Positions 1,542-25,418 of a DNA stretch of 64,000 nucleotides are shown here, piece by piece. The notes under the pieces were generated by a model. That model ran no database searches. It saw only the letters and a list, made by a program, of their open reading frames with translations, and was not told the origin of the DNA. The number at the start of each line of letters is the position of its first letter. Within the stretch, counting starts at the first letter, position 1. The stretch is from Escherichia coli (GTDB taxonomy: Bacteria; Pseudomonadota; Gammaproteobacteria; Enterobacterales; Enterobacteriaceae): assembly GCF_022846255.1 (NCBI RefSeq), contig NZ_AP025682.1, one strand, 5' to 3'. The translations under genes were made by a program, and so were the position numbers.

Positions 1542-2744
1542 ATGTTAAAAGTGGAAATGTTATCCACCGGGGATGAAGTGTTACACGGGCAAATCGTTGA
1601 CACTAACGCTGCCTGGCTGGCCGATTTTTTCTTTCATCAGGGGCTGCCATTATCTCGCCGCAATACGGTGGGGGATAACCTTGATGACTTAGTCACCATT
1701 CTTCGCGAACGTAGTCAGTACGCCGATGTGTTGATCGTTAACGGCGGGCTGGGACCGACCAGTGATGATTTAAGCGCACTCGCCGCTGCGACAGCAAAAG
1801 GTGAAGGCCTGGTGCTGCATGAAGCCTGGCTCAAAGAGATGGAACGCTATTTCCATGAACGGGGACGAGTAATGGCACCGAGCAACCGTAAACAAGCGGA
1901 GCTGCCTGCCAGTGCTGAATTTATCAATAACCCGGTAGGCACTGCCTGTGGTTTTGCCATACAGCTTAATCGTTGCCTGATGTTCTTTACCCCCGGCGTA
2001 CCGTCAGAATTTAAGGTGATGGTCGAGCACGAAATCCTGCCGCGCCTGCGCGAGCGTTTTTCTTTACCACAGCCGCCGGTTTGCCTGCGTTTGACTACCT
2101 TTGGTCGTTCGGAAAGCGATCTGGCACAAAGCCTGGACACTCTACAACTGCCGCCGGGCGTAACAATGGGCTATCGCTCCTCAATGCCGATTATCGAACT
2201 GAAACTCACCGGACCGGCAAGCGAGGAACAGGCGATGGAAAAACTGTGGCTGGACGTTAAACGTGTTGCCGGACAGAGCGTGATTTTCGAAGGCACCGAA
2301 GGACTGCCCGCGCAGATCAGTCGCGAATTGCAGAGCCGCCAGTTCAGCCTGACGCTGAGCGAGCAATTCACCGGTGGTTTATTGGCTTTGCAACTTTCTC
2401 GCGCAGATGCTCCATTGCTGGCGTGTGAAGTGGTTCCTTCACAGGAGGAAACCCTGGCGCAAACTGCGCACTGGATTACAGAACGGCGGGCGAACCATTT
2501 TGCTGGGTTGGCACTGGCTGTTTCTGGTCTGGAAGATGAGCATCTCAACTTTGCACTAGCCACGCCAGACGGCACTTTCGCTTTGCGTGTACATTTCAGT
2601 GCCACACGCTACAGTCTGGCTATTCGCCAGGAAGTCTGCGCAATGATGGCGCTTAATATGCTACGCCGTTGGTTAAACGGCCAGGACATCGCCAGCGAGC
2701 ATGGCTGGATTGAGGTTGTTGAGTCCATGACCTTATCTGTCTGA
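1542..2744 (+). CDS. yfaY: CinA-like competence/damage-inducible domain protein YfaY, 400 aa
   Basis: SD aggag at 1531-1535; protein recognised as CinA/MoCF-binding family. Confidence 0.8.
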   Translation: MLKVEMLSTGDEVLHGQIVDTNAAWLADFFFHQGLPLSRRNTVGDNLDDLVTILRERSQYADVLIVNGGLGPTSDDLSALAAATAKGEGLVLHEAWLKEMERYFHERGRVMAPSNRKQAELPASAEFINNPVGTACGFAIQLNRCLMFFTPGVPSEFKVMVEHEILPRLRERFSLPQPPVCLRLTTFGRSESDLAQSLDTLQLPPGVTMGYRSSMPIIELKLTGPASEEQAMEKLWLDVKRVAGQSVIFEGTEGLPAQISRELQSRQFSLTLSEQFTGGLLALQLSRADAPLLACEVVPSQEETLAQTAHWITERRANHFAGLALAVSGLEDEHLNFALATPDGTFALRVHFSATRYSLAIRQEVCAMMALNMLRRWLNGQDIASEHGWIEVVESMTLSV

Positions 2745-2963
2745 TTCCGCCACTCTGTGCCGGTTTACTGCACCGGCACATTCCCCCTCCGGCAAAATTT
2801 GTCCAACCTGTTGTACTCAATAAGAAAAAATCCGTGCGCTGATTCACAAATTTGTGCGTAATTTCTCCAGTCCGCTGGACGAGAAACGGGATTTGATGCG
2901 CTTCACAATTTTACTCCCCCTGAGCAACGAGACTGATTCCAGTATCTAAGACTGGAGTCCAGT

Positions 2964-3746
2964 ATGTTGGAATCAAGCAAAGTTCCCGCCCTGACACGGG
3001 CTATTGATATTCTCAATTTGATTGCCCGGATTGGCCCCTGTAGTGCTGCGACGATCATTGACACATTGGGGATCCCTAAAAGCACAGCCTATTTGCTGCT
3101 TAATGAACTCAGGCGTCAGCGTTTTCTTAGCCTTGATCATCAGGAAAATTTTTGTTTGTGGACCAGGCTGGTGGAGCTTTCCGGTCATGCGTTAAGCAAG
3201 ATGGATCTCCGGGAACTGGCTCGACCGCGTTTGACGCAACTGATGGATACCACCGGGCTGTTATGTCACCTGGGGATTATTGATAACGGCAGCGCTTATT
3301 ACATTTTGAAAGTGGAGTCATCAGCCACTATCAGCGTGCGTTCCCATGAAGGAAAAAGCCTTTCGCTTTATCGCTCCGGAATAGGTAAATGCCTGCTTGC
3401 CTGGCAACCTGCAGCTGTACAGCAAAGCATTATCGAAGGGCTGGTCTGGGAACGGGCGACACCCACAACGATTACTCATCCACAGCAACTTCACGAAGAA
3501 CTGGCGCGTATTCGCCGCCAGGGCTGGAGCTATGACAACGGCGAAGATTACGCCGATGTCCGTTGTGTCGCTGCGCCGGTGTTTAACGCCAATAACGAGC
3601 TTACTGCTGCGATTTCGGTGGTCGGTACCCGCTTACAAATCAATGAAGAATACCGTGATTATCTGGCGGGCAAGGCCATTGCCTGCGCCAGGGATATTTC
3701 ACGTTTGTTGGGATGGAAAAGTCCCTTTGACTTACAGGCCTCATAA
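2964..3746 (+). CDS. rhmR: IclR-family transcriptional regulator of the L-rhamnonate operon
   Basis: 260 aa; N-terminal HTH plus IclR effector domain; SD ggag at 2954-2957; first gene of rhmRDTA. Confidence 0.85.
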
Positions 3747-3760
3747 CAATGGAGAACATC

Positions 3761-4966
3761 ATGACCCTACCAAAAATCAAACAGGTTCGCGCCTGGTTTA
3801 CTGGCGGTGCGACAGCAGAAAAAGGCGCTGGCGGCGGTGATTATCACGACCAGGGGGCGAATCACTGGATTGATGATCATATTGCCACCCCGATGAGTAA
3901 ATACCGCGAATACGAGCAGTCCCGCCAGTCATTTGGCATTAACGTTCTTGGCACGTTGATTGTTGAAGTTGAAGCAGAAAACGGCCAGACCGGATTCGCC
4001 GTTTCGACAGCCGGTGAAATGGGTTGTTTTATTGTCGAAAAACATCTTAACCGTTTCATTGAGGGTAAATGCGTCAGTGATATCAAACTGATCCACGATC
4101 AAATGCTCAATGCCACCCTGTATTACTCCGGCTCTGGTGGCCTGGTGATGAATACGATTTCCTGTGTCGATCTGGCTCTGTGGGATCTGTTCGGCAAAGT
4201 GGTCGGGCTTCCGGTTTATAAACTTTTAGGCGGCGCAGTTCGTGATGAGATTCAGTTCTACGCCACAGGTGCGCGTCCGGATCTGGCAAAAGAGATGGGC
4301 TTTATCGGTGGCAAAATGCCGACGCACTGGGGGCCACATGATGGCGATGCGGGGATCCGCAAAGATGCCGCTATGGTCGCGGATATGCGTGAAAAATGCG
4401 GTGAGGATTTCTGGTTAATGCTCGACTGCTGGATGAGTCAGGACGTGAACTATGCCATCAAACTGGCCCACGCTTGCGCGCCCTATAACCTGAAATGGAT
4501 CGAAGAGTGCCTGCCGCCACAGCAGTATGAAGGTTATCGCGAACTGAAACACAACGCACCAGCGGGGATGATGGTCACCAGCGGTGAGCACCACGGCACA
4601 CTGCAATCTTTCCGTACGCTTTCAGAAACCGGTATCGACATTATGCAGCCGGATGTTGGCTGGTGCGGTGGCTTAACCACGCTGGTGGAAATTGCCGCAA
4701 TCGCCAAATCCAGGGGGCAACTGGTGGTGCCGCACGGTTCGTCTGTTTACTCCCACCATGCGGTGATCACCTTCACCAATACGCCATTCAGCGAATTCCT
4801 GATGACCAGCCCGGATTGTTCAACGATGCGTCCGCAATTTGATCCGATTCTGCTTAATGAGCCAGTGCCGGTGAATGGTCGTATTCATAAATCAGTGCTT
4901 GATAAACCCGGTTTCGGCGTCGAACTCAATCGTGACTGCAATTTGAAACGCCCCTACAGCCACTAA
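3761..4966 (+). CDS. rhmD: L-rhamnonate dehydratase (enolase superfamily), 401 aa
   Basis: ATG 3761 with SD ggag 3751-3754; length matches K-12 RhmD; ORF-track start 3749 adds MENI. Confidence 0.85.
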
Positions 4967-7358: not shown

Positions 7359-8318
7359 TTAATGACCGTTCGGAATATCAGCATCAGTGAGTTGGGTTGT
7401 CGCCAGCACAATCTCACGTTCAAAGCCCTGTTCCAGCATGCGCAAGGCAATTTTAATGGCTTGTTCATGCATACCTTCTACTTTGCCTTTCTGCAAACCC
7501 TCCAATTTCCCCTCCTGCCAGCCTTCTAATTTACCTTCCTGCCAGCCAATTTGATGTCCTTCCTGCCGCAGCCGTTCAGCAATAGTCATTAATCTCTCCT
7601 TTTGTAGTGGTGAACGTTCGGCAATCTCCTCAATAAAACGGGTGAAACGGGAGGTATCGCCGCATTGCAGCAGATAATTAAACAGCGTTTGTAGCTGGCT
7701 GTCATTAGTGAAGCCTCTAACCAAAAGCGTGGTAATCCTGTCGACCATACCGATTAAATCGCGGTCGCGAATATGCTTTTGAATCAGTTCCAGCAGAGCT
7801 ATACGCCGATGTTGCATGATCTCATCGTCAGGTACGATGGTGATATCCACCAACGGAAAAGCTTCGGTGTACAACTGCCGGGCAAGTTGCGGATCGTCAA
7901 ACTCATCCAGCCAGTTGAGTGAGTACGGGTAGGGCGAGGTTTCGCCATGATAAAACAGCAATGGTACCACCAGCGGAACTCTGTCATAGCCTTTATCCAG
8001 GTGACGTTGCATGGCGGCAGTGGCATAGCGCATTAGTCGAAAAGCCATATTCTTTTCTGCAGAACTTTGATGTTCAATCACGCAGTAGATATAGCCGTCA
8101 CCGTCGCTGGTTTCCACCGACCACAAAACATCCGAGTAGTAAGCGCGTAAACTTTTTTCAATAAAGCTGGTGGGTTCCAGGCGTAAGGTTTGCAGGTTGC
8201 AAAGCTTGCGCAGCGGCTCTGGCAGATGTATTTCGAGAAAATCTCGCGCCGTATCGGGCGAGAACATAAAGGTTTTAAATACCGCATCATGCGGGGAGGA
8301 GGTTGTTGATTCGGTCAT
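7359..8318 (-). CDS. yfaD: Recombination-promoting nuclease RpnB (PD-(D/E)XK, transposase_31/YhgA-like family), 319 aa
   Basis: N-terminus [17 protein letters not shown] typical of Rpn/YhgA family; C-terminal xxEG tetrapeptide repeats. Confidence 0.8.
7473..7544 (-). repeat. In-frame tandem repeat inside yfaD encoding [24 protein letters not shown] (three 24-bp units)
   Basis: Read directly from codons 7473-7544; the ypaA copy has only one WQEG unit. Confidence 0.7.
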
Positions 8319-20160: not shown

Positions 20161-20692
20161 CTCAGGAAGGAAAAAGTGGCTTCCGCGCACCTTAGGTCAG
20201 ACAAGGTGTCCGGGAAAGTCAATGGGAAGAGAAAAATTTGTTAAAAATAACCGTTCGGTGAATTCTTGAACGGTAAAATAGGATAGGTAAATTGATATAG
20301 ATGGTTTATTAATCTTGTTGCTAATGATTGCCAAAATTGATCTAGGCACAAGTCGTCACATAATCTGATGTATCAGTTGTGGTCAATATATAAGCGAGTG
20401 TAAGCGATTGTTGAGTCGGAAATGGTTGTTTTATATTCGGTTATTGTTAAATACTAAGCCAATTTGTTACTTTTGTATTTATTATAAGAATATTATTTAT
20501 TGCTTTAATTCAGTTTAAATATAACCGATTTACCTTAAAGTTATTAATTTGAATTGTGATGCATCTAAATTAATTATCAGATAATAACAAAATAGTTATT
20601 ACATCAGGGGCAGAATTTACAAAAGAAAAATACCCTATATCGCATAATGCGATTAAATACGCCATCTTATAGAAAATGATGGTTAGATGAAT

Positions 20693-23600
20693 ATGCGGAT
20701 TATCTCTCTACGCAAGGAGTATTTATCTTTACTCCCGTCAATGATTGCATCTCTTTTCTCTGCTAACGGTGCCGCAGCGGTCATTGATTCATGCCAGGGA
20801 TATGATATCAAAGCGAGCTGTCAGGCCAGCAGGCAAAGCCTTTCGGGTAATATACAGGACTGGAGCATCGCGGATGGACAATGGTTGATTTTTTCGGGTA
20901 TGGTCAATAATACCAGCGGTGGCGCAGTATTTTTGCAGCACAGTGCTGAATTTACGATATCACCACAAAATGAAACAGGGATGACCCTGTTTGCTGATAA
21001 CTCGGTTAGTGGCGAATATAATAATGGTGGGGCTATCTTTGCTAAAGAAAACTCAACGATAAATCTTGCGAATGTTATTTTCGACAGTAATGTTGCAGGA
21101 GGCTATGGCGGAGCAATCTATTCTGCCGGTACCAATGATACCGGTGCCGCCGATTTACGTGTCACTAACGCCGTATTTCACAATAACATCGCTAATGACG
21201 GCAAAGGCGGTGCAATTTATACCATCAATAATGACGTCTATTTAAGTGATGATGCTTTTAATAATAATCAGGCATATACATCAACCAGCTATAGTGATGG
21301 GGACGGCGGTGCCATTGATGTTACGGATAATAGTACGGATAACACACATCTTTCAGGAAAAACGATAATTAATAATACCTCCTTTACCAATAACTATGCA
21401 GAAGGTTATGGCGGAGCAATTTATACCAGCAGCACCACATCCCCGTATCTTATTGATATTTCTGTTGATGATAATTATGACCAAAACAATGGTGTGATGA
21501 TTGATGAAAATAACAGCGCCTCGGGATATGACCATTCGGCGACGGCAGCGGCGGGGGGCTTTATGTATATCGGTCATAGTGTGGCTGAATTTAACATTGC
21601 CGCCGATAAAACGCTGGTAATAGGCAACACCAGCAACGATGGTGCGATTGATTCTCTTGCCGGAACGGGAGTCATCGTGAAAGAGGGAGCGGGAGAGTTA
21701 GTCCTCAATGCCGACAATAATGCGTTTACCGGCGAGATGAGTATCCAGAATGGCGAGGTGACGCTGGGGCGCAGCGATGAGTTAATGAATGTCGGCGACA
21801 CGCACTGTCAGAGCGATCCGCAGGATTGCTTTGGTCTGATGGTCGGCAGCACTGTTCATTCTGAGTATCAGGCAGAACTGAATGTTGGCAATACACAACA
21901 AACGTTTGTGCACTCATTAACCGGTTTTGCTAATGGCATTTTGAATATCGACGCAGGCGGCAATGTTACCGTAAACCAGGGCGGTTTTTCCGGCTCGATT
22001 CAGGGTGAAGGACAGTTGACGGTAGCGCAAGATGGCAGCTATCTCCTGACAGGGGCGCAGTCGATGGCATTAACCGGCGATATTGTGGTGGAAGATAACG
22101 CCGTATTGTCGCTAGCGGGGAATCAGGCCGATTTACGGGCAATGCAGAGCGATCCGCAATCGATCGTGCTAAATGGCGGAGTATTGGATCTCTCTGATTT
22201 CACCACCTGGGATGGCGATAGCTCATACAATGACGGTCTGCAAATCAGCGGCAGCGGGGGGACAGTGATTGGCAGTAATGATGTCGTTGATATCAGCAGT
22301 GGCGATGATTTACATATTGGCGGCAGTGATGCCAGCCAGAATGGCGTTTATGTCGTCATTAATGCGGGGGATCAGCGCGTAACGCTGGCGAATAACAACG
22401 GTTATCTCGGTAATACGCAAATCGCCTCCGGTACGCTTGAAGTCAGCGATAATTCGCAATTGGGGGACACAAGTTACAACCGTTCAGTGATCTTCACAGA
22501 TCCCCAACAACACAGTGAAATGGATGTGACGACTGATGTTGACACTCGCTCGGCTACAACAGGTCAGGGCAGGAATATTGAAATGCGCGCTGATGGCGAA
22601 ATACACGTTGAGGATGGCGTAGATACGCAATGGGGCGGATTGATGGCGGATAGTACCGGGCAACAACTGGATAGCGTAAGCACGTTGACTAAAAGTGGCG
22701 GCGGTACGCTGGAGTTGACCGCCAGCGGCACTGCGACGTCTGCGGTACGTGTGGAGGACGGAACGCTAAAAGGTGAAGCGGAGAATATTATTCCTTATGT
22801 TTCTTCACTGTGGGTGGGGGAAGACGGTGTTTTTGAAACCGGGCAAAATCAGGATATTCGCTCAATCGATGCCACCTCTGGCGGCGATATCGACATAACC
22901 GATGGTACTGTGTTGCGATTGACGCAGCAGGATACGAACCAGGTGCTGGATGCCTCGCTGTTTAGCGGCGACGGTACGCTGGTGAATGCCACCGATGGCG
23001 TGACGCTGGCAGGTGAGCTTAATACCAACCTTGAAACTGACAGCCTGACTTATCTTTCCGACGTGACGGTCAATGGTGATCTAACTAATACTTCCGGTGC
23101 TGTCAGTCTGCAAAATGGCGTCGCTGGCGACACGCTCACGGTAAACGGTGATTACATCGGTGGCGGTACGTTGTTTCTCGACAGCGAATTAAACGGCGAT
23201 GACTCGGCAAGCGACCAACTGGTGTTGAACGGCAATACCTCGGGTAACACGACCGTGGTGGTTAACCCCATTACTGGCATTGGTGAACCGACATCTACAG
23301 GTATTAAAGTGGTTGATTTCGCAGCTGATCCCGCGCAGTTTCAAAACAATGCGCAGTTCAGTCTGGCAGGAAGCGGCTACGTCAATATGGGGGCGTATGA
23401 CTACACGCTGGTGGAAGATAACAACGACTGGTATCTGCGATCACAAGAAGTCAATCCGACGCCGCCGCCCGATCCAGACCCGACTCCAGATCCTGATCCC
23501 ACGCCGGATCCCGACCCAACCCCCGACCCAACCCCCGACCCGGAACCTACGCCTGCCTACCAGCCGGTGTTGAATGCCAAAGTTGGTGGATATTTTAATA

Positions 23601-24463
23601 ACCTGCGGGCGGCAAATCAGGCATTTGTGATGGAGCGACGCGATCACGCTGGTGGCGATGGTCAGACGCTGAATTTACGCGTTATCGGCGGGCGTTATCA
23701 TTACACGGCGGTAGGGCAGTTGGCTCAGCATGAAGACACTTCTACGGTGCAGCTTAGCGGCAACCTGTTTAGCGGGCACTGGGGTGATGATGGCGAGTGG
23801 ATGCTTGGGATTGTTGGTGGCTACAGCGATAACCAGGGCGACAGCCGCTCGAATATGACCGGAACTCGCGCCGATAACCAGAACCACGGTTATGCCGTTG
23901 GGCTGACCTCAAGCTGGTATCAGCACGGTAATCAGAAGCAGGGGGCCTGGTTGGATAGCTGGCTGCAATATGTGTGGTTTAACAATGATGTTTCCGAACA
24001 AGACGATGGCGTGGATCATTACCACTCGTCGGGGATTATCGCCTCGCTGGAAGCCGGTTATCAGTGGTTACCGGGGCATGGTGTGGTGATTGAACCGCAG
24101 ACGCAGGTGATTTATCAGGGCGTGCAGCAGGATGATTTTACCACCGCTAACCATGCGCGCGTGTCACAATCGCAGGGTGATGATATTCAGACGCGGCTGG
24201 GTTTACACAGCGAATGGCGTACTGCTGTTGGTGTCACGCCAACGTTAGATCTGAATTATTATCACGATCCCCATTCGACGGGAATTGAAGAAGATGGCAG
24301 CACTATCAGTGACGATGCGGCGAAGCAACGGGGTGAAATAAAAGTGGGAATAACGGGCAATATCAGTCAGCGAGTTTCGCTGCGTGGTAGCGTGGCGTGG
24401 CAGAAAGGGAGTGATGATTTTGCCCAGACGGCAGGGTTTTTGTCGATGACAGTGAAATGGTAA
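20693..24463 (+). CDS. yfaL: AIDA-I-type autotransporter adhesin YfaL, ~1256 aa
   Basis: Signal peptide, Asn/Gly-rich beta-helix passenger, Pro-rich linker and C-terminal beta-barrel ending in W; alternative ATG at 20687. Confidence 0.85.
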   Translation: MRIISLRKEYLSLLPSMIASLFSANGAAAVIDSCQGYDIKASCQASRQSLSGNIQDWSIADGQWLIFSGMVNNTSGGAVFLQHSAEFTISPQNETGMTLFADNSVSGEYNNGGAIFAKENSTINLANVIFDSNVAGGYGGAIYSAGTNDTGAADLRVTNAVFHNNIANDGKGGAIYTINNDVYLSDDAFNNNQAYTSTSYSDGDGGAIDVTDNSTDNTHLSGKTIINNTSFTNNYAEGYGGAIYTSSTTSPYLIDISVDDNYDQNNGVMIDENNSASGYDHSATAAAGGFMYIGHSVAEFNIAADKTLVIGNTSNDGAIDSLAGTGVIVKEGAGELVLNADNNAFTGEMSIQNGEVTLGRSDELMNVGDTHCQSDPQDCFGLMVGSTVHSEYQAELNVGNTQQTFVHSLTGFANGILNIDAGGNVTVNQGGFSGSIQGEGQLTVAQDGSYLLTGAQSMALTGDIVVEDNAVLSLAGNQADLRAMQSDPQSIVLNGGVLDLSDFTTWDGDSSYNDGLQISGSGGTVIGSNDVVDISSGDDLHIGGSDASQNGVYVVINAGDQRVTLANNNGYLGNTQIASGTLEVSDNSQLGDTSYNRSVIFTDPQQHSEMDVTTDVDTRSATTGQGRNIEMRADGEIHVEDGVDTQWGGLMADSTGQQLDSVSTLTKSGGGTLELTASGTATSAVRVEDGTLKGEAENIIPYVSSLWVGEDGVFETGQNQDIRSIDATSGGDIDITDGTVLRLTQQDTNQVLDASLFSGDGTLVNATDGVTLAGELNTNLETDSLTYLSDVTVNGDLTNTSGAVSLQNGVAGDTLTVNGDYIGGGTLFLDSELNGDDSASDQLVLNGNTSGNTTVVVNPITGIGEPTSTGIKVVDFAADPAQFQNNAQFSLAGSGYVNMGAYDYTLVEDNNDWYLRSQEVNPTPPPDPDPTPDPDPTPDPDPTPDPTPDPEPTPAYQPVLNAKVGGYFNNLRAANQAFVMERRDHAGGDGQTLNLRVIGGRYHYTAVGQLAQHEDTSTVQLSGNLFSGHWGDDGEWMLGIVGGYSDNQGDSRSNMTGTRADNQNHGYAVGLTSSWYQHGNQKQGAWLDSWLQYVWFNNDVSEQDDGVDHYHSSGIIASLEAGYQWLPGHGVVIEPQTQVIYQGVQQDDFTTANHARVSQSQGDDIQTRLGLHSEWRTAVGVTPTLDLNYYHDPHSTGIEEDGSTISDDAAKQRGEIKVGITGNISQRVSLRGSVAWQKGSDDFAQTAGFLSMTVKW
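23456..23553 (+). repeat. Short tandem repeats encoding Pro-Thr/Asp linker (PTPPPDPDPTPDPDPTPDPDPTPDPTPDPEPTP) in yfaL
   Basis: Visible 6-18-bp periodicity (ccggatcccgaccc / cccgaccc). Confidence 0.7.
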
Positions 24464-24602: not shown

Positions 24603-25325
24603 TCACTTATTCTGCGTGTGCAGCATATAGTTCACATCCACGCCGGGGCCGAGCTTAAAGGAATTAGTGATAGGGTTGTAATGCAGCCCGGTCATATGCC
24701 GTTCTTTAAGACTGGTCTGATCCACCCAGCCCAGCAATTCTGCCGGTTTAATAAACTTCTTCACATCATGTGTACCTTTAGGCACCATGCGCAAAATATA
24801 TTCCGCACCAACCACCGCCATCAGCCATGACTTGCCGTTGCGGTTAAGCGTCGAGAAAAAGACATCGCCGCCCGGTTTCACCAGTTGCGCACAGGCTCTG
24901 ACCACTGACTGAGGATCGGGGACGTGCTCCAGCATCTCCATACAGGTCACCACGTCATACTGTCCGGCATGTTTTGCCGCGTGCTCTTCCACGGTTTCCT
25001 GCACGTAATCCACCTGAATGCCGCTTTCCAGTGCGTGCAGTTTTGCCACCTGCAATGGCTCAAAGCCCATATCCAGACCGGTCACCGTCGCGCCCTCCCG
25101 CGCCATACTCTCGGCCAGAATGCCGCCGCCACAACCGACATCGAGCACCTTTTTGCCAAATAAACCGCCAGCACGCTCGGCAATATAGCCCAGACGCAGC
25201 GGGTTAATGCGGTGCAGCGGTTTGAACTCACCTTCAAGATCCCACCAGCGGGAGGCGACGGCTTCAAATTTAGCGATCTCTTCGTGGTCTACGTTGTGGT
25301 TTACCGGCGATTTTTCGGCATTCAT
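24603..25325 (-). CDS. ubiG: Ubiquinone biosynthesis O-methyltransferase, 240 aa
   Basis: Starts [20 protein letters not shown]; SAM motif VLDVGCGGG; ORF-track start 25373 is an extension. Confidence 0.9.
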
Positions 25326-25418
25326 TGGCACTTCTACTCCGTAATTGGCAAGACAAACGAGTATATCAGGCATTGGATGTGAATAAAGCGTATAGGTTTA
25401 CCTCAAACTGCGCGGCTG

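Follow-up and report, generated by a model that had tools for sequence, protein, structure and literature searches.

A length-variable, acidic proline-rich spacer between the autochaperone domain and the barrel of the Escherichia coli autotransporter YfaL/EhaC

The yfaL locus

The stretch of DNA analysed here, 64,000 nucleotides from Escherichia coli and called the window throughout, carries on its plus strand an uninterrupted open reading frame of 1258 codons (20687-24463). Its first in-frame ATG lies at 20687, and the RefSeq-style start is two codons (6 nt) further on, at 20693. A sequence-only reading of the window had named the gene yfaL, and the family and genome comparisons agree: the protein scores 2703.9 bits against the NCBIfam YfaL/EhaC equivalog NF007285 (cutoff 1459), with residues 3-1258 aligned on model positions 1-1250, and RefSeq annotates yfaL under the matching DNA in 5,419 of 5,426 complete E. 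coli genomes. The gene has nrdA on one side and ubiG-gyrA on the other, neighbours that are supported by the NrdA, UbiG and GyrA equivalog scores; the order yfaL-ubiG-gyrA is also present in the gut metagenome contigs L018-L021. The N-terminus of YfaL, MRIISLRKEYLSLLPSMIASLFSANGAAA, looks typical of a Sec signal peptide when judged by eye, and the repeat matches in the passenger (Pfam PATR and Chlam_PMP, together with TIGR02601 and TIGR01376) suggest a beta-helical passenger. The features that matter for the following are collected in Table 1.

Table 1. Features of yfaL discussed in the text, with window coordinates
Feature	Position	Strand	Residues	Basis
yfaL/ehaC CDS, AIDA-I-type classical autotransporter adhesin	20693..24463	+		NF007285 match; RefSeq yfaL annotation
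Autochaperone (junction) domain, C-terminal end of the passenger	23078..23410	+	798-908	Pfam PF18883 AC_1, 3.9e-18
Proline-rich (P-D/T/E)n spacer	23456..23554	+	924-956	Translation; gap in 4MEE alignment; AF2 model; allele lengths
Perfect tandem array of the 12-nt unit CCCGACCCAACC (encodes PDPT), 2.7 copies	23510..23541	+		Tandem Repeats Finder, 100% matches, score 64
Predicted alpha-helix, expected occupant of the barrel pore	23576..23620	+	964-978	AF2 model residues 185-199, pLDDT 87-90
Outer-membrane beta-barrel translocator	23666..24457	+	994-1257	Pfam PF03797, 1.7e-31 (residues 997-1236); TIGR01414

Judged by its sequence, the window looks like a piece of an E. coli lineage with few representatives among complete genomes. 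In the set of 5,426 complete E. coli genomes, gyrA reaches at best 99.2% identity and yfaL 99.0%, with no identical copy of either, and an exact-sequence search of a collection of 15 billion proteins did not find this YfaL protein. Relative to the window, the yfaL alleles of the complete genomes fall into two main groups, one at 95-99% identity (~1,240 genomes) and one at 80-90% (~4,180 genomes); on yfaL alone, the window's gene is grouped with the 95-99% class.

One neighbouring gene start deserves a remark. The ubiG open reading frame on the minus strand (24603-25373) gives 256 aa when read from its first ATG. The UbiG model begins to align at residue 32, and related contigs (L018) have a gene call of 240 aa; the true ubiG start thus probably lies downstream of that ATG.

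Sequence and structural setting of the proline-rich run

The linker of YfaL is a run of 33 codons whose translation is PTPPPDPDPTPDPDPTPDPDPTPDPTPDPEPTP. It opens with the codons CCG ACG CCG CCG CCC GAT and closes with GAA CCT ACG CCT, and the conserved anchors GACTGGTATCTGCG and TACCAGCCGGT bracket the segment. Its composition is extreme: 18 Pro, 8 Asp, 1 Glu and 6 Thr, with a net charge of -9. Indeed, 18 of the 33 prolines of YfaL are found within these 33 residues, against a proline background of 1.2% (binomial tail ~3e-26). The run had been described beforehand as low-complexity, proline-rich, in-frame coding sequence rather than a repeat array, and the translation, the excess of proline and the reading frame bear this description out. 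It had also been placed at 23456-23553; the start holds, and the end falls 1 nt before the last proline codon finishes. A non-coding repeat array or an overlapping gene was considered and rejected, as every open reading frame that overlaps it besides yfaL, on whichever strand, is short and embedded (33-97 aa).

At the DNA level, the repeats of the linker are imperfect except for the perfect array of 12-mers in Table 1. Tandem Repeats Finder also reports a looser array of period 18 at 23466-23535. A score of 50 is reached by only 5 rows across the 64-kb window, the highest being that of a tandem repeat elsewhere, at 7474-7547 (period 24, 3.1 copies, 76% matches, score 85). All four proline codons are used within the run (CCG 6, CCC 5, CCA 4, CCT 3). 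This codon usage, together with the imperfect DNA units, means that the repetition is mostly one of protein composition and less one of DNA, and that one recent DNA duplication overlies it.

The earlier placement of the run between passenger and beta-barrel is borne out by structural comparison and can be narrowed. When residues 780-1258 are compared with the AIDA-I transport unit (4MEE), two blocks align, residues 812-920 and 965-1252 (4.4e-38), and the proline run falls into the unaligned gap between them, which comprises 44 residues in YfaL and ~11 in AIDA-I. The IcsA autochaperone (3ML3) aligns as far as residue 923, and a Pfam Pertactin match (PF03212) covers residues 816-918. An AlphaFold2 model of the C-terminal part from residue 780, built on an alignment of 16 sequences (mean pLDDT 81.5), predicts beta strands up to residue 918, then coil, then the helix and the barrel. 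Residues 920-959 are modelled as coil without secondary structure, with a block-mean pLDDT of ~46-50. The top Foldseek match of the model is again 4MEE (target TM 0.91, rmsd 2.0 A). The gap in the 4MEE alignment and the coil in the model thus place the run, as a spacer, between the autochaperone domain, whose predicted strands end at residue 918, and the pore helix at 964-978.

The architecture has precedents. The closest described feature is found in TibA, which has a proline-rich domain (residues 627-677) between its junction region and its membrane-embedded C-terminal domain (PMC3835316). By description rather than by sequence, this is the same architecture as that of the YfaL spacer; however, TibA, a glycosylated self-associating autotransporter, is not the same protein, and its domain has ~50 aa as compared with 17-33 aa in YfaL. 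The closest solved structure is that of AIDA-I, with which both the autochaperone-like block and the helix plus barrel of YfaL align. Because the junction has ~11 residues in AIDA-I and 44 in YfaL, including the 33-aa proline run, the YfaL spacer is an insertion relative to AIDA-I. Short proline repeats are also known from pertactin. Its passenger has (GGXXP)n and (PQP)n regions whose copy number varies by allele; they occupy loops or the end of the beta-helix and have been discussed as targets of immunity. The YfaL run, in contrast, is a separate inter-domain spacer built of PD/PT units. Runs of ~20-35 residues in X-Pro pattern, the (EP)n(KP)n segment of TonB and the Ala-Pro hinge of OmpA, link membrane-bound and functional domains and are thought to be extended. 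These runs are periplasmic, belong to proteins unrelated to YfaL and, in TonB, combine acidic with basic charges; that of YfaL is expected to be extracellular and is purely acidic. At the level of sequence, distant autotransporters (30-38% identity, several of them named Citrobacter) also contain P(D/E)PT-type runs of 25-57 aa. In the literature collection searched, no paper has both yfaL and "proline-rich".

Linker length among alleles

A comparison of linker length among yfaL alleles had been suggested as a check, with an invariant linker across strains as the contrary outcome. The linker is not invariant: at least seven aligned lengths exist among alleles, 33, 31, 29, 24, 23 and 21 aa in complete E. 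coli genomes and 17 aa in the protein database. The eleven sampled loci with an intact linker already comprise five of these lengths (33, 31, 29, 23 and 21 aa), and a twelfth has a 168-nt deletion. The 29-aa linker, found in K-12-like, O157 and most B2-like alleles, accounts for about two thirds of the sampled genomes. The 31-aa linkers end in PDPAPDPTP or PDPAPAPTP and the 23-aa linkers in PDPIP; the 24-aa linker is that of AR_0017, and a 21-aa class is also present. The 33 aa of the window, shared with N1420 and A20, tie as the longest linker seen; another allele of 33 aa, with a different sequence, comes from Escherichia sp. KS167_9B in the protein database. The matches in that database are mostly fragments with few full-length orthologues, and they serve here as a source of extra linker variants and not of frequencies.

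How common each class is can be read from a systematic sample of 60 rows, evenly spaced down the ranking of the 5,419 genomes. Relative to the window, net length changed by 0 nt in 1 row, -6 in 6, -12 in 37, -30 in 13 and -36 in 2, with a large deletion in 1; an independent set of 40 rows gave -6 in 3, -12 in 27, -30 in 8 and -36 in 1, with the same large deletion in 1. All 100 net differences are multiples of 3 nt, and the sampled alleles of complete genomes stay annotated as intact coding sequences. Only 4 of the 5,419 records have at least 99% identity to the window over 401 nt around the linker, which means that the window's 33-aa allele is rare. The length classes mostly track allele lineages: the -30 class lies at 84-85% identity, and the -12 class is dominant in both major groups. 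This argues that much of the variation is old and inherited, and not actively generated.

Close pairs of alleles give a view of how single changes arise. Relative to FEX669 and FHI_NMBU_03, which are among its closest alleles, the window has exactly one extra 12-nt unit CCCGACCCAACC, and relative to AR_0017 it has two units and one CCG codon; over ~4 kb these three alleles differ from the window by 28, 38 and 13 substitutions, respectively. Overall, alleles that are 13-49 substitutions apart over ~4 kb carry 0.7, 1.7 or 2.7 copies of the unit. Such differences in copy number between near-identical alleles are the signature of slippage or of unequal exchange between direct repeats. Length differences between alleles come in in-frame steps of 3, 6 and 12 nt and more.

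A larger change is the 168-nt in-frame deletion in E. coli VTB97022v (L006, NZ_CP178670.1), which matches window positions ~23324-23503. Both of its ends lie at the 12-nt direct repeat CTGATCCCACGC, which occurs once in the autochaperone region and once in the linker. The allele loses the last ~43 residues before the linker, i.e. the end of the autochaperone, as well as the first part of the linker. Its coding sequence is still annotated as intact (1194 aa); over the ~1 kb compared, a single substitution separates it from the K-12-like allele.

A different kind of change is seen just upstream of the linker. N1420 (L012) and A20 (L016) differ from the window by 22 substitutions within ~155 nt of the autochaperone domain (23157-23311); over the remaining gene N1420 is nearly identical to the window, and A20 is somewhat more diverged throughout. 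To judge from this clustering, the tract looks like a recombination mosaic.

Truncated products were considered in the same region. The one found most often in the databases, P0118, is read on 19 contigs, and the four loci compared (L018-L021) come from four different samples. In these gut metagenome contigs, yfaL is a pseudogene with three open reading frames at 624-1916, 2001-3425 and 3482-4315 of the locus. The break near the linker is a 1-nt deletion (GTATG-CTAC), after which the proline run is out of frame until a TGA just beyond it. The deletion is ~50 nt upstream of the linker and therefore gives no support to the linker as a frameshift hot spot. Three further products, P0034, P0037 and P0044, change frame within the linker itself (e.g. 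...PDPDPTPDQHPTRNLRLPTSRC), which may reflect either real out-of-frame slippage or errors in a C-rich tract.

The linker is also met as an end point of assemblies. Dozens of partial YfaL fragments of Shigella sonnei (P0031-P0116 and L022, on contigs of ~1.7-1.9 kb) end at scattered sites in or just before the linker, and the P0019 fragments (303 members) cover only the barrel region beyond it. From these two sets, short-read S. sonnei assemblies seem to break near the linker, perhaps by an IS insertion or a drop in coverage. The S. sonnei linker begins TPPSPPNPNPTPDP, in which D is changed to N twice.

The spacer reading and its alternatives

We propose that the run is very probably an acidic, proline-rich, in-frame spacer of the type Va autotransporter YfaL/EhaC, with a length varied by slippage and a role as an extended tether. 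Insertions and deletions would occur between the short direct repeats that encode PD and PT, by replication slippage or unequal recombination. The resulting spacer would lie between the autochaperone, where the probably beta-helical passenger has its base, and the alpha-helix expected to plug the outer-membrane barrel. With its alternating X-Pro pattern and strong acidity, it would probably form an extended, polyproline-II-like tether outside the mouth of the barrel. In the model, a coil with pLDDT below 50 signifies the absence of confident structure and not a predicted polyproline-II rod. If an extension of 3.1 A per residue is assumed, 17-33 residues would span ~53-102 A, and this span would set the stand-off of the passenger and its freedom relative to the outer membrane and LPS. 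The suggestion, made from the sequence alone, that length variation would alter the distance at which the passenger is displayed is plausible. The length differences themselves most likely reflect allele variation under weak or no selection, and not a switching mechanism.

Three other functions were weighed, each of which is less well supported than the spacer reading. The run might be a hypermutable contingency tract, in which copy number switches YfaL on and off or varies it within a population, as in phase-variable adhesins. A perfect 12-nt tandem array is present, near-identical alleles differ in its copy number, and P0034, P0037 and P0044 read the linker out of frame in the protein database and stop just past it. 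However, the units are 6 and 12 nt, such that slippage preserves the frame, as in every one of the sampled rows; the array has fewer than three copies, and the remaining run is imperfect at the DNA level, with no long homogeneous tract. One length is common to about two thirds of the genomes, the best-supported frameshift allele is broken upstream of the linker, and the three out-of-frame products, which derive from assembled public sequencing runs, may be sequencing errors. Units that are multiples of 3 nt, a short array and alleles annotated as intact argue together against a contingency switch, and we consider it extremely unlikely. In Bordetella pertactin, immune selection has been put forward to account for the proline-rich repeat regions, and the YfaL run might likewise be mainly a surface-exposed, immunodominant repeat epitope whose variation is driven by the host. 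It is polymorphic, repetitive and expected outside the barrel, the junction region has the Pfam Pertactin match, and one study (PMC9110714) reported positive selection in a set of E. coli genes that includes yfaL. The same study does not place the selected sites in the linker, though. The run lies close to the membrane, at the foot of a passenger of ~900 residues, where LPS should hinder antibodies; in addition, its variants are few and mostly bound to lineages, and the substitutions within it are conservative (D/E/A/T/I). We therefore regard immune selection as a very unlikely driver.

The third function concerns secretion: an unfoldable stretch might form or feed the hairpin in the pore when translocation starts, or block premature folding in the periplasm. 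The position is suggestive, as the run directly precedes the pore helix and follows the autochaperone, which in established models of autotransporters is the first part of the passenger to emerge (PMC9289746). Similar runs are carried by related autotransporters. On the other hand, AIDA-I works with a junction of only ~11 residues, which means that a long spacer is dispensable for secretion as such, and natural alleles of 17-33 aa, together with the 56-aa deletion allele that is still annotated as intact, indicate that no particular linker length is needed. A role in secretion is thus unlikely. A final possibility keeps the spacer and makes its length adaptive, as a "stalk length" that is recurrently re-tuned by in-frame slippage of 6 or 12 nt, matching the thickness of O-antigen or capsule or varying a membrane-proximal epitope. 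We give it little credence; if it were true, length classes would correlate with surface polysaccharide type beyond phylogeny.

To return to the spacer, the linker represents a known class of element within an already known gene, and its allelic length variation is real but modest and unsurprising. For annotation, this means that the run should not be labelled a non-coding repeat array, and that length differences at the linker should not be taken as assembly errors or pseudogenes. The C-terminal 465 residues of YfaL, which by the numbering of that study span the spacer, serve as an anchor for surface display (PMC13101318). Natural linkers of 17-33 aa show that the protein tolerates different spacer lengths, and the length could be set by design. 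The 12-nt unit provides a small, clean example of in-frame slippage between otherwise near-identical alleles.
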